A DNA stretch of 64,000 bases from a phage, in sequence record PQ536907.1, one strand, 5' to 3'. A model generated the notes under the pieces. That model made no database searches. It was not told where the DNA came from and worked only from the letters and a program-made list of their open reading frames with translations. A program made the translations under genes and the position numbers. How positions within the stretch are numbered: the stretch's first letter is position 1; each line of letters opens with the position of its first letter. Positions 3,069-28,041 of the stretch are shown in pieces.

Positions 3069-4033
3069 TGTATTCTTTAGAGGAATTTAATAATCAAGCA
3101 ATAAACGCAGATTTCCAGCGTAATAATATGTTTAGCTGCGTTTTTGCGACAACTCCATCAACTAAAAGCTCTTCGTTGATAAGTTCAATTAGCAACTTTT
3201 CTTATAATAACTTGGGTCTAAATTCAGACTGGTTAGGATTGTCTCAAGGCGATATTAATCAGGGAATTACCACGCTAATTACTGCTGGCACACAAAAACT
3301 GATAAGAAAATCAGGGGTTAGTAAATATCTTATTGGTGCCATGAGTCAACGTACAGTTCAAAGTTTATTGGGCTCATTTACAGTTGGTACATATTTAATT
3401 GACTTCTTTAATATGGCATATAACTCATCTGGATTGATGATATATTCTGTAAAAATGCCAGAGAATAGATTATCCTATGAAACTGACTGGAACTATAATT
3501 CTCCTAATATTCGTATAACTGGAAGAGAATTAGACCCTTTGGTTATTTCATTTAGAATGGATTCAGAAGCTTGTAACTATCGTGCAATGCAAGACTGGGT
3601 TAACTCCGTTCAAGACCCAGTAACTGGACTGCGTGCTTTGCCACAAGATGTCGAGGCAGATATTCAGGTTAATCTTCATTCTCGTAATGGATTGCCTCAT
3701 ACTGCGGTGATGTTCACCGGATGCATTCCAATATCAGTGAGCGCTCCTGAGTTATCATATGATGGAGATAACCAAATAACTACATTTGATGTTACTTTTG
3801 CGTACAGAGTGATGCAGGCTGGAGCGGTTGATAGGCAAGCTGCGCTTGAATGGCTTGAATCTGCTGCTATAAATGGTATTCAAAGCGTTCTCGGAAATAG
3901 TGGAGGTGTTACTGGACTATCTAATTCGCTTTCACGACTTAGTAGATTAGGAGGGACTGCTGGAAGCATTTCAAACATTAATACTATGACAGGAATTGTT
4001 AATTCGCAGAGTAAAATATTAGGAGCAATATAA
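3068..4033 (+). CDS. 54: Baseplate tail-tube initiator gp54
   Basis: 321 aa (T4 gp54 about 320 aa); start overlaps the gene 48 stop; synteny. Confidence 0.88.
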   Translation: MYSLEEFNNQAINADFQRNNMFSCVFATTPSTKSSSLISSISNFSYNNLGLNSDWLGLSQGDINQGITTLITAGTQKLIRKSGVSKYLIGAMSQRTVQSLLGSFTVGTYLIDFFNMAYNSSGLMIYSVKMPENRLSYETDWNYNSPNIRITGRELDPLVISFRMDSEACNYRAMQDWVNSVQDPVTGLRALPQDVEADIQVNLHSRNGLPHTAVMFTGCIPISVSAPELSYDGDNQITTFDVTFAYRVMQAGAVDRQAALEWLESAAINGIQSVLGNSGGVTGLSNSLSRLSRLGGTAGSISNINTMTGIVNSQSKILGAI

Positions 4034-22582: not shown

Positions 22583-24847
22583 TCATAATTTACAGGATGA
22601 ACAATCTTCAGCTTTTGGAGTTTCTATTTCATAATCATCAGTACCAGAACCATCGCGGGTATTATGATAATAGAAATTTTTTCCGCCAAAATACCAAAAA
22701 TACAAAAGGTCATCAATCATTATTGACATTGGAACCTTTCCTTTTGGAAAAATCTGCGGGTCATAATATGTATTCGCCGAAGCTGATTGACAAACCCATT
22801 TCAGCATAATAGCTACCTGCGTAAGATAAGGTTTATTACCTTTCTTAGCTAATTTCCATGTATAATCATAGAGGTCTATGTTATGCTCAATATTGGGCAC
22901 GACTTGATTAAAGGAGCCCTCTTTTGATTCTTTAACAGAGACTGGTCCACGTGGAGGCTCGATACCGTTTGTACTGTTAGAAACTTGGGAAGATGACTCA
23001 CATGGCATAAGTGCTGATAATGTGCTATTACGGATGCCAAAGAGCTTAAGGTCTTCCCGCAGCGACGACCAGTCACAAACGTATTTTGGAGCTGCGATTT
23101 GGTCAATCTTTTTATTGTACCAGTCGATAGGTAATTCGCCTCGAGACCAACGAGTGTCTGAATAATATTCGCAAGGTCCTTTTTCTTTGGCGAGCTTAAT
23201 GGATGCTTTAATGAGTCCATACTGTAATCTCTCAAATAGTTCATGTGTTAAATCGTTAGCATCTTCATAAGAAGCAAAGTTACTTGCCAGCCAAGCTGCA
23301 TAGTTAGTAACACCTACACCAAGGTTTCGACGCTTTTTAGCTTTTTCTGCTTCAGGAACTGGATATCCTTGGTAATCCAAAAGATTATCAAGAGCACGAA
23401 CTTGAACTTCTGCCAATTCATTAATTTTATCTTGGTCTTGCCAATCGAAGTTATCCAGCACAAATGCAGATAACGTGCACAATCCAATTTCAGCATCGGG
23501 GCTATTCACATCATTTGTTGGAATAGCAATTTCACAGCACAAGTTACTCTGACGAATAGGTGCCTTTTCACGAATAAATGGAGTATAGTTATTCGTATTA
23601 TCAATGAACTGTACATAAATCCTTGCTGTTCCTGAGCGTTCAGTCATGAGCAATTCAAATAGTTCACGGGCTTTAATACGCTTTTTACGAATATTAGGGT
23701 CTTTTTCTGCTGCTTCGTATAATTCACGGAAACGGTCTTGGTCTTTAAAATAAGAATAATAAAGCTCGCCACCCATTTCATGCGGACTGAACAAAGTAAT
23801 GTAATCGTTCTTTCCGAATCGTTCCATCATCAAATCATTCAGCTGAACACCATAATCCATATGACGAATGCGGTTTTCTTCTACGCCTTTGTTATTTTTC
23901 AAAACGAGAAGATTTTCAACTTCCAAATGCCAAATAGGATAATAAGCAGTAGCAGCGCCGCCACGAATTCCACCCTGTGAACATGATTTAACTGCAGTCT
24001 GAAAATGTTTCCAAAAAGGAATAACACCGGTATGGCGTACTTCACCCATGCCAATCTTAGAACCTTCAGCACGAATCATACCAACGTTAATACCAATTCC
24101 AGCGCGTTTAGAGATATATTCAACAATTGAAGCGGAAGCCTTATTGATAGACTTTAATGAATCACCTGCCTCAATAACAACGCATGAACTAAACTGTCGA
24201 GTCGGAGTACGGCAACCAGCCATAATAGGAGTTGGCAATGAAATCTGTCGAGTAGATACTGCTTCATAAAAACGGATAACATGTTTTAGTCTATCAACAG
24301 GTTCATCTTGATGCAGTGCCATTCCAATAGTCATAAATGCAAACTGTGGAGTTTCATAAATTTGACCGGTGGTTTTATCTTTAACTAGATATTTTTCTTT
24401 TAATTGCATCGCCCCGGAATAAGTAAATTCCATATCCCGCTCGTGCTTAATTTTTGATTCTAAAAATGTAATTTCTTCTGCTGAATATTTTGACAATAAT
24501 TCAGGGTCATATTTACCTGCATTTACACAATAAGAAATATGGTCAATAAATGAACGCGGTTCATACTGCCCATAAACATGCTTACGAAGAGCGAACATTA
24601 GACAACGTGCAGCTACATATTGATAATCAGGCTCTTCAACCGAAATAGAATTCGCAGCGGCCTTAATGACAATAGTCTGAATATCATCAGTTGTCATTCC
24701 ATCACGGAGATAAGATTTAATATTTTCATATAATTCATAAGGATCTACTGATGTTCCTTCAGCTGCCCAAGATAAAACTTTAATAATTTTTTGTGGGTCA
24801 AAGCTCTGAGAAACACCACTACTTTTGATAACATTGATTAATTGCAT
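22583..24847 (-). CDS. nrdA: Ribonucleotide reductase large subunit
   Basis: 754 aa; class I RNR catalytic-subunit length and organisation; synteny nrdB-nrdA-td. Confidence 0.92.
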   Translation of the reverse strand: MQLINVIKSSGVSQSFDPQKIIKVLSWAAEGTSVDPYELYENIKSYLRDGMTTDDIQTIVIKAAANSISVEEPDYQYVAARCLMFALRKHVYGQYEPRSFIDHISYCVNAGKYDPELLSKYSAEEITFLESKIKHERDMEFTYSGAMQLKEKYLVKDKTTGQIYETPQFAFMTIGMALHQDEPVDRLKHVIRFYEAVSTRQISLPTPIMAGCRTPTRQFSSCVVIEAGDSLKSINKASASIVEYISKRAGIGINVGMIRAEGSKIGMGEVRHTGVIPFWKHFQTAVKSCSQGGIRGGAATAYYPIWHLEVENLLVLKNNKGVEENRIRHMDYGVQLNDLMMERFGKNDYITLFSPHEMGGELYYSYFKDQDRFRELYEAAEKDPNIRKKRIKARELFELLMTERSGTARIYVQFIDNTNNYTPFIREKAPIRQSNLCCEIAIPTNDVNSPDAEIGLCTLSAFVLDNFDWQDQDKINELAEVQVRALDNLLDYQGYPVPEAEKAKKRRNLGVGVTNYAAWLASNFASYEDANDLTHELFERLQYGLIKASIKLAKEKGPCEYYSDTRWSRGELPIDWYNKKIDQIAAPKYVCDWSSLREDLKLFGIRNSTLSALMPCESSSQVSNSTNGIEPPRGPVSVKESKEGSFNQVVPNIEHNIDLYDYTWKLAKKGNKPYLTQVAIMLKWVCQSASANTYYDPQIFPKGKVPMSIMIDDLLYFWYFGGKNFYYHNTRDGSGTDDYEIETPKAEDCSSCKL

Positions 24848-25164
24848 AAGTCCTCAACTTGAAAATCGTCTTTAAACAATCGGTTAACTATATGAGCTAT
24901 TATATCACCATGACACGGCTTTGGTTTACATGTGCATCCTAGCCTCATTCCACGTAAAGGCTCTAAATGTGCTTTAGTTATTTCTCCGGATTTAATTCGA
25001 CGTATAAAATCTTTTTTGAATAATTCAATGGCAGCCTCCCGGCTGCCAGCATCTTTACCGACGTAATTTCCCCAAAATGTACCACGGTGAATATTAACAT
25101 CAAAGTCGGATTTGTATTTATTCACTACCCGGCATAGACGGCCCGGTTGGTAATAATTCTTCAT
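24838..25164 (-). CDS. Hypothetical Cys/His-containing protein (nrdA.1-like, 108 aa)
   Basis: ORF with [11 protein letters not shown] motif; between td and nrdA. Confidence 0.5.
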
Positions 25165-25381
25165 ATTGTTTTTCCGTTAAAACAGTAATATCGTAGTAAC
25201 AGTCAGAAGAAGTTTTAACTGTGGAAATTTTATTGTCAAAATACTCACGAGTCATTTTATGAGTATAGTATTTTTTACCATAAATGGTAATAGGCTGTTC
25301 TGGTCCTGGAACTTCTAACTCGCTTGGGTTAGGAAGTGTAAAAAGAACGACACCAGAAGTATCTTTAAATCGTAAAATCAT
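25118..25381 (-). CDS. Hypothetical protein (nrdA.2-like, 87 aa)
   Basis: ORF overlapping the td stop and the next ORF by 47 nt. Confidence 0.4.
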
Positions 25382-26238
25382 ATTGCCATTTTCCCTTTAA
25401 TTGCTGGATGCGATTCATAATTTTCAAGGATAAAATCTTTCGGTTTCATGTATTCAGTTAACCAGTAAAGCTGTGTTTCGGTGTCACAATTTCCAAACTC
25501 TATAGGCCAATCAATTTTAAGTTCACACAGTTCTTTAGGCTCACGACGTAAAATTTCTTTACATTGCTCAGTATGATTCATATAGATGTGAGTATTACCA
25601 CCAGAAAATATCAAATCTCCTGGGATAAGATTACACATCTTAGCCACAATATGCGTCAAGGCAGCGTACGAGGCAATGTTGAATGGCAAGCCCAAGAAAA
25701 CATCTACACTTCTTTGGTACCATTGTAAATCAAGATAACCATTACGCACATTAAACTGATAGAACATATGACAGGGCGGTAATGCCATTTGATTGGTTTC
25801 AGCTGGATTCCATGCTGAAACGATTTGACGTCGATCAGTTGGTAATTTTTTAATACGATCAATAGTTTCAACTAATTGATCCACACCACCGAAATCACGC
25901 CATTGTTTACCGTATATAGGACCAAGTTCACCACTATGATATCCTAGGTCTTTAGCCTGGTTTTCATAGTTATCGTCCCAAATAGTTTTACCTTGAATAA
26001 GACTACCATGAGTGCGAAGACGTAAATCATTAACATTGGTAGAACCGGAAATAAACCATAGAAGCTCAGCAATACATGCATTCCACGCAAGCTTCTTAGT
26101 TGTTACCGCAGGAAAACCTTTAGTTAAATCCCAGCGTAATTTAGTACCGAACAAAGCAATTGTTCCTGTGCCTGTTCGGTCATCGGTTTCATAACCATTT
26201 TCAAAAATGTCTTTAATTAAATCTTGGTATTGTTTCAT
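25378..26238 (-). CDS. td: Thymidylate synthase (uninterrupted)
   Basis: 286 aa continuous ORF; N-terminus [26 protein letters not shown] matches T4 TS as I recall it; no intron. Confidence 0.93.
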
Positions 26239-26282
26239 TTAGTACCTTATATAAATTATAATACATTTTATGAAGCTAATAA

Positions 26283-26630
26283 TCAATACGGTTTAGCATC
26301 AAATTTTCTCTCAATTTCAGGCGTGAAATATAATTCTTTACCGCGTTTGGAAAAGCGACCAATAATATGATAATTATTCTCATCAAACGTGATATTACCA
26401 ATATCCATAGCTTTCAACCAAATATCGATATTTCTATCCAGCTTTATGTCAAAATTCCAATACGGAGAACTATTACCGAAAATACTACAAGCGGATTCAG
26501 TGAAACAGCTACTATAAATCTTGTCTTTAGGAACTACTAATTGGTAGACACCTTTAATAAACTGAGGACCTTGCCATTTTGGCTGTTTCTCGTCTTTTTC
26601 TAACAGAATAGGGTAATAATTAAAATTCAT
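26283..26630 (-). CDS. Hypothetical protein (115 aa) between frd and td
   Basis: ORF with ATG start 19 nt downstream of the frd stop; no motif I recognise. Confidence 0.5.
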   Translation of the reverse strand: MNFNYYPILLEKDEKQPKWQGPQFIKGVYQLVVPKDKIYSSCFTESACSIFGNSSPYWNFDIKLDRNIDIWLKAMDIGNITFDENNYHIIGRFSKRGKELYFTPEIERKFDAKPY

Positions 26631-26649
26631 ATTTCCGCCACGCGTTATT

Positions 26650-27470
<821 letters not shown>

Positions 27471-27479
27471 TATATTTCC

Positions 27480-27722
27480 TCAAACAGACTTTTTCACAAT
27501 TTTCCAATCAGATTTAAACTGGTCGACGTCAGAATGGTAAATCCAAAATCCTGCGCTTTCTCCGTCTTCATAAAGAGGGCACCCATCACATTCATCTTCC
27601 CATCCCATGCCACGTAAAAGGTGTTCAGCTTTTTCAACAAGTTCAGAATCTTTACCGATGATATTAAAATACCATTTACCTCTAACTTCCGAATCTTTGA
27701 TGCTCTGACGTTGTAATCTCAT
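27480..27722 (-). CDS. Hypothetical protein (80 aa)
   Basis: ORF. Confidence 0.45.
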   Translation of the reverse strand: MRLQRQSIKDSEVRGKWYFNIIGKDSELVEKAEHLLRGMGWEDECDGCPLYEDGESAGFWIYHSDVDQFKSDWKIVKKSV

Positions 27723-27780
27723 TTTATTCTCCTCAAGTTGATAAGGCTATAGTATCATTACCATAGCCCGTTGTAAACAA

Positions 27781-28041
27781 TTATTTTTGAATTTTATCGA
27801 GCCACTTACCAAGCTTAATCATTTCTTTAGTAGCCTTTTCCATACTTCTGAACTTGACCAATAGAGGATAGGTATCGACACCCATAACTAAACTGGTTAC
27901 AAGACTGTGTTCACCCACAAGCCATAACGAATACGTTTGAATATCGAGCCCGTAATTTCTGTCTTTATGGACCCGTACACCCATCACTTCAAATTTCTCA
28001 CTAGCTTTTTCTACCGCATCCAGGAAATCATCTTTAGTCAT
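27781..28041 (-). CDS. Hypothetical protein (about 86 aa)
   Basis: Track ORF trimmed to the internal Met, which sits 1 nt after the upstream ORF stop. Confidence 0.45.
   Translation of the reverse strand: MTKDDFLDAVEKASEKFEVMGVRVHKDRNYGLDIQTYSLWLVGEHSLVTSLVMGVDTYPLLVKFRSMEKATKEMIKLGKWLDKIQK

Follow-up and report, generated by a model that had tools for sequence, protein, structure and literature searches.

An old accessory gene between frd and td of T4-like phages, probably lost from T4 by deletion between short direct repeats

Introduction

In the T4 reference genome, frd ends at position 145109 and td starts at position 145112; the two genes share a 4-nt ATGA overlap of stop and start codons, nothing lies between them, and td is split around I-TevI. 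In other T-even phages a small gene occupies this position. It is recorded as RB32ORF229c or RB14ORF231 in T2, T6, RB14, RB51, wV7 and hundreds of Tequatrovirus genomes, and the RB14 GenBank record, where it is named RB32ORF229c, describes it as 'flanked by 9 bp repeat'. Both the gene, which has hundreds of database entries, and its flanking repeat are already known. In T4, deletions between short direct repeats arise by illegitimate recombination, as is the case for rII deletions. The intergenic regions of T4-type phages also contain PeSLs, mobile regulatory cassettes composed of a promoter plus a stem-loop, which are found at many sites.

The window analyzed here is the whole 64,000-nt stretch of a phage genome, record PQ536907.1, given as one strand. 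Its 115-aa ORF between frd and td is the same gene as RB32ORF229c: it has the frd-td position and the flanking repeat recorded for RB14, 227 records share 99-100% protein identity, and no material difference between the window and this family was found.

Gene organization of the frd-td region

According to the ORF list, frd, the 115-aa ORF and td are all located on the minus strand. The frd gene (26650 to 27231, minus strand) encodes a dihydrofolate reductase of 193 aa, is annotated as frd in RB14, T2 and T6, and showed 96.5% nucleotide identity with T4 frd when the last 200 nt were compared. It ends in ESVYK followed by a stop (GAA TCA GTA TAT AAA TGA), with the TGA at 26652-26650. A 19-nt spacer (26631 to 26649, minus strand) containing a weak GGA Shine-Dalgarno-like motif precedes the ORF (26283 to 26630, minus strand), which starts with the ATG at 26630, stops at 26283 and belongs to the RB32ORF229c/PHROG 1928 family (paralog A below). 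The stop of the ORF is 44 nt from the start of td (25378 to 26238, minus strand), a thymidylate synthase gene of 286 aa in one uninterrupted frame, without the group I intron and I-TevI. Downstream of td are nrdA.2, nrdA.1 and nrdA (Pfam DUF5496 and DUF4326).

A first-pass annotation, made from the letters alone, had noted the ATGA overlap of T4 and the absence of the ORF from that phage, and the T4 reference agrees on both points. It had also placed about 410 bp between frd and td and the ATG of the ORF 19 nt past the frd stop; by coordinates, 411 nt (26239-26649) separate the frd stop from the td start, and the distance to the ATG is exactly 19 nt. Its statement that td has no group I intron likewise held, since td is a single 286-aa frame and no Rfam match to a group I intron was obtained in 24500-28000. 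The sole Rfam match was to an insect lncRNA model at 19.8 bits; this was regarded as noise, and the 411-nt interval was not taken to contain a non-coding RNA.

Upstream of frd, an 80-aa ORF with a GTG start (27228-27470, minus strand; PHROG 4308, annotated RB14ncORF233c) has a stop codon that overlaps the frd start. T4 is also without this ORF, and has just a 71-nt gap between frd.1 and frd.

The spacer between the ORF and td contains candidate expression signals. A 31-nt segment, TAGCTTCATAAAATGTATTATAATTTATATA (26248 to 26278, minus strand), is promoter-like and absent from phage F2 in the junction alignment. The promoter-like elements TTGATT (26286-26281) and TATTAT (26263-26258) are separated by 17 nt and give 9/12 matches, and a MotA-box-like sequence, ATTAGCTTCA (26280-26271), lies 12 nt before TAATTT. 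A promoter scan yielded 14 sites against 11.1 expected in shuffles, which is not above background, and the record of phage Lutter has a 'promoter' feature annotated at the equivalent position. A promoter before td is thus a prediction only. No second copy of the 29-nt promoter-like core was found in the 64-kb window with 3 mismatches allowed, and no terminator-like stem-loop was found in the spacers. A repeated regulatory cassette of the PeSL type was rejected, since the window holds the promoter-like segment only once. An AAGGT motif (26244 to 26248, minus strand), 5 nt before the ATG of td, resembles a Shine-Dalgarno sequence and would substitute for the frd-td translational coupling of T4.

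Conservation of the 115-aa ORF

To judge from its pattern of substitutions, the 115-aa ORF is a real, strongly conserved gene and not a chance frame. Pairwise dN/dS values among the Tequatrovirus copies (window, RB14, T2, T6, AdolfPortmann and F2) were 0.00-0.05, and 31 synonymous and 11 non-synonymous changes were counted between the window and F2. Many public accessions contain the exact protein, in each case as a 'hypothetical' or 'uncharacterized' protein. It matched PHROG 1928 with an E value of 3.1e-36, residues 4-111 aligning with profile positions 2-125 of 126.

A HMMER search of 1.84 billion representative proteins returned about 20 diverged clusters of stand-alone relatives of 95-116 aa; two long repetitive matches (P0021 and P0024) were dismissed as spurious. 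Because these relatives are all stand-alone, there are no domain fusions to exploit. Within the family, Q16, W19, G27, G91, K95 and G97 are invariant and L9, Y29, R92, F93 and F102 nearly so, and the motifs of the ORF are LLExDxxQxKW and IIGRFxKxGxxxxF. The first-pass annotation had recognized no motif in the protein; in line with this, scans of the ORF protein and its relatives against Pfam, NCBIfam and PADLOC gave no matches. A PDB profile search gave chance matches only and no sequence relative.

Distribution and paralogs

A tblastn search of 50,697 phage records was used to examine the distribution of the ORF. It was found in 363 records with an identity of 90% or more, including T2, T6, RB14, RB6, RB18 and RB51, and in 227 records of other genera with an identity of less than 60%; the matches fell at one place per record. 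In at least eight further T4-like lineages the frd-td slot is occupied by homologs 31-46% identical to the ORF, the loci being those of Jiaodavirus PKO111, Mosugukvirus PM2, Moonvirus Merlin, Kanagawavirus ZX14, Gelderlandvirus CGG4-1, Marfavirus R3_1 and EI, Edwardsiella phage PEi26 and a metagenomic contig. The frd-td placement was seen in the window and in 14 of the 14 related loci inspected. In the other genera, the start and stop codons of the homologs usually overlap those of the neighboring genes.

Most of the distant loci have a tandem pair of genes, one of about 105-111 aa and the other of about 115-119 aa, which share the motifs L(L/I)xxDxxQxKW and GRFxKxGxxxxF. Comparison of the A and B families by hhalign gave a probability of 99.4% and an E value of 2.9e-21, and A and B are therefore paralogs. 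The pairs in Merlin (260/259), PM2 (gp191/gp192), Kanagawavirus, Gelderlandvirus, Marfavirus and PEi26 resemble the window gene in slot, in length class and in the QxKW and GRFxKxG motifs. In Moonvirus, Mosugukvirus, Kanagawavirus, Gelderlandvirus, Marfavirus and PEi26, the two tandem copies have start and stop codons that overlap frd and td, whereas the window has copy A only, spacers of 19 nt and 44 nt, and the promoter-like insert before td.

Identities between the window and the other genera were 31-46% for the ORF (paralog A), 44-50% for Frd and 71-81% for Td; with F2, a divergent Tequatrovirus, they were 92% for the ORF, 87% for frd and 88% for td. The ORF has diverged in step with frd and td. 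On these record counts, possession of the ORF is the common state in the T4 genus, and most T4-like phages carry a gene of this family at the position.

The T4-type junction and the direction of change

The block that distinguishes the window from T4 is bracketed by a direct repeat. The left copy of TAAATGAAA (26648 to 26656, minus strand) includes the frd stop codon and the right copy (26233 to 26241, minus strand) the td start codon, both identified in the sequence and by a repeat search. The match extends to 11 of 12 nt (TAAATGAAAtAA), and the search reported a 12-nt repeat of 92% identity at a spacing of 415. Compared with T4, the window has 415 extra nt between the two copies of TAAATGAAA: the T4 junction reads cagtataTAAATGAAAcaataccaag, and that of the window reads cagtataTAAATGAAAtaacgcg, the ORF, and then aaggtacTAAATGAAAcaataccaag. 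TAAATGAAA is single at the fused junctions of T4 and RB69 and double in the window. The frd and td flanks of T4 are nearly identical to those of the window up to the junction (1 mismatch in about 75 nt upstream and 0 in about 40 nt downstream), and nothing in this alignment points to an ORF-less haplotype that has long evolved apart. Unlike the window, T4 has one TAAATGAAA, no gene between frd and td, and the td intron with I-TevI.

The first-pass annotation had taken the ORF for a small lineage-specific acquisition, a reading that the comparison reverses. Alignment of the frd-td region with the T-even phages placed the ORF in T2, T6 and RB14 as well, with T4 flanks essentially identical. A 40-nt probe that matches the fused junction only detected the T4-type junction in just 32 records, as against 363 with the ORF, while the same slot is occupied in at least eight lineages and T4 is nested among the ORF-bearing phages. 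About half of the 32 are T4 isolates or sequence fragments; the others include RB55, RB59, vB_EcoM_112, HY03, SG1, G28, F1, JEP6, FN, FL12, FL18 and G2133. The dS of frd was 0.11-0.18 between T4 and the ORF-bearing phages and 0.8-1.1 between any of them and F2, and the dS of the ORF between F2 and the others was 0.78-0.97. Since the ORF dS to F2 matches the frd dS, the ORF predates the split of F2, and T4 is nested within the ORF-bearing group. Recombination among T-even phages can blur this nesting argument. The lineage-specific event is most simply a loss in T4 and not a gain in the window, and the best account of the T4 overlap is that it is a derived minority allele.

The T4 junction would have arisen when 415 bp were precisely deleted between the two TAAATGAAA copies in a T6- or T2-like ancestor. 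A single remaining 9-nt copy is as expected from the short-repeat deletions of T4, with the difference that the deletion here is deduced by comparison; a duplicative insertion would leave the same footprint. The repeat is also of a common kind. TAAATGAAA is a generic stop/start junction, TAA-ATG-AAA, made up of a TAA stop, an ATG start and a Lys codon. It occurs 10 times in the window (at 3546, 10386, 13614, 14958, 18300, 26233, 26648, 46915, 60098 and 62934) against 3.8 expected, and 10 occurrences were reached in 0 of 100 shuffles. Because TAAATGAAA is common at the gene junctions of this genome, cassette losses and swaps would be easy, and shared gene-boundary motifs like it could provide general microhomology for cassette loss and exchange.

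The opposite direction, a recent and lineage-specific entry of a foreign small gene into an overlapping frd/td junction with duplication of a 9-12-nt target, would account for the bounding direct repeat that occurs once in T4 and RB69 and was already flagged by the RB14 annotators. The left copy, read in another frame as ATG AAA TAA, moreover resembles a decayed td start (ATGAAAtAA vs ATGAAAcAA). However, the same slot is filled in at least eight other lineages with a divergence parallel to that of frd, F2 and the T2/T6/window group, within which T4 is nested, descend from an ancestor that already had the ORF, and records with the ORF outnumber those without it by 363 to 32. We consider such an acquisition unlikely; the most that is left of it would be a re-insertion long ago, in the stem of the genus, and not a gain specific to this phage. 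As for a transposable insertion, a target direct repeat is present at both ends (TAAATGAAA twice, 415 nt apart); the ORF has no transposase similarity, no terminal inverted repeats were found at the ends, and there is one copy per genome.

RB69, a Mosigvirus, has a fused junction, GTATAAATGAAACAATACCAA, that is exactly of the T4 type. The RB69 junction region (L021:6350-6430) reads TATAAATGAAACAATACCAA, the same as in T4 though the genus is different. For this junction the choice is between a separate loss at the same microhomology and an old state that the two phages share. The fused state of RB69, together with the likeness of the left copy to a decayed td start, makes it possible that an ancient insertion in the stem of the genus, with a 9-12-nt duplication, was reversed in T4. 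Either way, under deletion or ancient insertion alike, the state of the window is not a recent gain.

As a whole, the locus is probably best explained by an old accessory gene at frd-td that T4 lost through a deletion between repeats. The ORF is an accessory gene of T4-like phages (Tevenvirinae), the first of the A/B pair of small paralogs, with a fixed home between frd and td; it is under strong purifying selection and would be read from the frd transcript. It is dispensable, because T4 and RB69 are without it.

Allelic variation around the frd-td slot

A third allele of the locus was found in 135 records at 90% identity or more (fPS-2, EC121, Sf21 and others), in which the slot corresponding to 26239-26649 of the window holds a 68-aa ORF, MSNKLKVKDVPNAMALFICRQMHQG (L015:2534-2740 in Yersinia phage fPS-2). 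Its ATG overlaps the frd stop and its stop overlaps the td start. The 68-aa gene is 78% identical to the gene that follows A and B in Marfavirus, whereas Frd is just 48% identical, which suggests horizontal exchange. It is also present, at about 43% identity, in Phapecoctavirus-like phages.

The 3' end of frd is polymorphic as well. In the junction alignment, RB14 and F2 have TATAAAAATGAAATA, and the window, T2 and T6 have TATAAATGAAATA. An A-run of 3 in the window, T2, T6 and T4 (26650-26660 in the window) gives a 193-aa Frd, and one of 5 in RB14 and F2 gives 204-205 aa: the two extra A's in the Lys codon run cause read-through of 11-12 codons that overlap the start of the ORF, and frd is 615 bp long in RB14 and 618 bp in F2. 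The change in the A-run looks recurrent, because RB14 and T6 differ very little otherwise (ORF dS 0.08).

Two deep allele classes of td were observed, one in the window, RB14, AdolfPortmann and fPS-2 and the other in T4, T2, T6 and HY03. When the 5' 540 nt of td (25699-26238) and the first 576 nt of frd (26656-27231) were compared, the between-class dS of td was about 0.6-1.0, whereas that of frd in the same phages was 0.06-0.25. This contrast points to a recombination boundary near the border of the ORF and td. The td classes do not follow the presence of the td intron. An I-TevI-like gene lies inside td in CGG4-1 (L007:3333-4064), T6, fPS-2 and HY03, and in PKO111 (L003:3668-4399) a free-standing homing endonuclease gene lies after td on the opposite strand. 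Unlike in several of these relatives, no homing endonuclease gene was found in the td region of the window.

Predicted fold and function of the ORF product

An AlphaFold2 model of the ORF protein, built from a 31-sequence alignment, had a pLDDT of 93 and a pTM of 0.85. The order of elements was E6-12, E27-34, E62-64, H68-76, E80-82/86-96 and E99-104, which suggests a small beta-barrel with the OB-like strand order b1-b2-b3-helix-b4-b5. The only BFVD matches were uncharacterized proteins of T4-like phages. The proteins have a pI of 7.7-9.6 and are rich in aromatic residues. By topology, the invariant or near-invariant residues W19, Y29, R92, F93 and K95 would be located in the loop between b1 and b2, in b2 itself and in the b4-b5 hairpin, a placement that would match the usual ligand face (L12/b2/b3/L45) of OB-fold domains such as S1, RPA, SSB, PriB, RecO and HIN.

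On this model, we tentatively suggest that the ORF product could be a non-enzymatic binder of single-stranded nucleic acid or of a protein partner, made in step with Frd and Td, although the odds are against this reading. The partner would belong to the nucleotide-synthesis or replication machinery, and the amounts of the protein would be coupled to those of Frd and Td. The adjacency to frd and td is weak functional evidence, because the gene order of the whole region is conserved.

The same collinearity bears on a more specific role, that of an accessory of the thymidylate cycle acting as an adaptor that bridges or modulates DHFR and TS in the dNTP complex, like the linker of protozoan DHFR-TS. 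The gene always lies between those for DHFR and TS, the overlapping codons imply co-translation in matched amounts, purifying selection is strong and no catalytic motif is present. The position nevertheless says little in a region that is collinear throughout, T4 and RB69 manage without the gene, and the T4 complex has been studied in its absence; such an adaptor role is unlikely. It is an equally speculative proposal, and one we hold with little confidence, that A and B constitute an unrecognized OB-like family, either a third partner of DHFR-TS or a binder of single-stranded nucleic acid in the replication/dNTP complex, which was overlooked since T4 deleted the gene.

The early and middle genes of T-even phages include many small optional ones that are host-specific counter-defense or host-takeover factors. 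The ORF is dispensable, polymorphic within the genus, small and without known relatives, and its slot holds alternative cassettes, among them the 68-aa ORF that looks horizontally exchanged. Genes of that type, on the other hand, are usually fast-evolving and mobile, and the ORF has a fixed locus, a dN/dS of at most 0.05 and ancient tandem paralogs. There was no PADLOC match, the library consisting of defense and not anti-defense proteins, and the accessory-gene screen papers searched did not mention the gene. A counter-defense function is regarded as an unlikely alternative.

Some GenBank records of the BASEL collection label the ORF a 'putative homing endonuclease', and an optional ORF that is polymorphic in presence and lies between conserved genes, beside the known homing target td, might be expected to be a free-standing homing endonuclease gene or its remnant, spreading by cutting ORF-less frd/td junctions. 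But no GIY-YIG, HNH, LAGLIDADG or PD-(D/E)XK match was obtained in 31 members at E values up to 10, there are no PDB or NCBIfam relatives, and no nuclease was matched in the PDB, either by sequence or by fold. The protein has just 115 aa and a predicted small beta-barrel fold. Its gene occupies a single fixed locus in all genera and not scattered sites, with coupled overlapping codons in the other genera, and its dN/dS is very low, with a vertical-looking divergence parallel to that of its neighbors. We regard a homing endonuclease as extremely improbable.

Discussion

The type of finding is a common one: a hypothetical phage gene that is conserved and belongs to a well-constrained family missing from the model phage. 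In the literature searched, no study of RB32ORF229c, of phrog_1928 or of a frd/td junction gene among T-even accessory genes was found, and four points appear not to be described there: the reading that the T4 overlap is a derived minority allele, the existence of three alleles at the locus, the relationship of A and B as paralogs, and the predicted fold. The locus illustrates a reference bias, in that the textbook overlap of T4 is uninformative about a gene that strong selection maintains in most relatives of this phage. It also offers a clear natural case in which a gene is lost and cassettes are exchanged at a stop/start microhomology. A family with a confident predicted fold and no relatives of known function or structure is a reasonable and cheap target for study. 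The current view of phage biology is unchanged unless a function of the ORF is found.

Several public annotations of the locus are in error. The ORF is given as a 'putative homing endonuclease' or a 'reductase', labels without support in the sequence; the records with annotation errors are MZ501046, MZ501050, MZ501066 and MZ501106 (BASEL phages), PP526941 and KR269718 (HY03). In the HY03 record, frd and td are mislabeled as head proteins.
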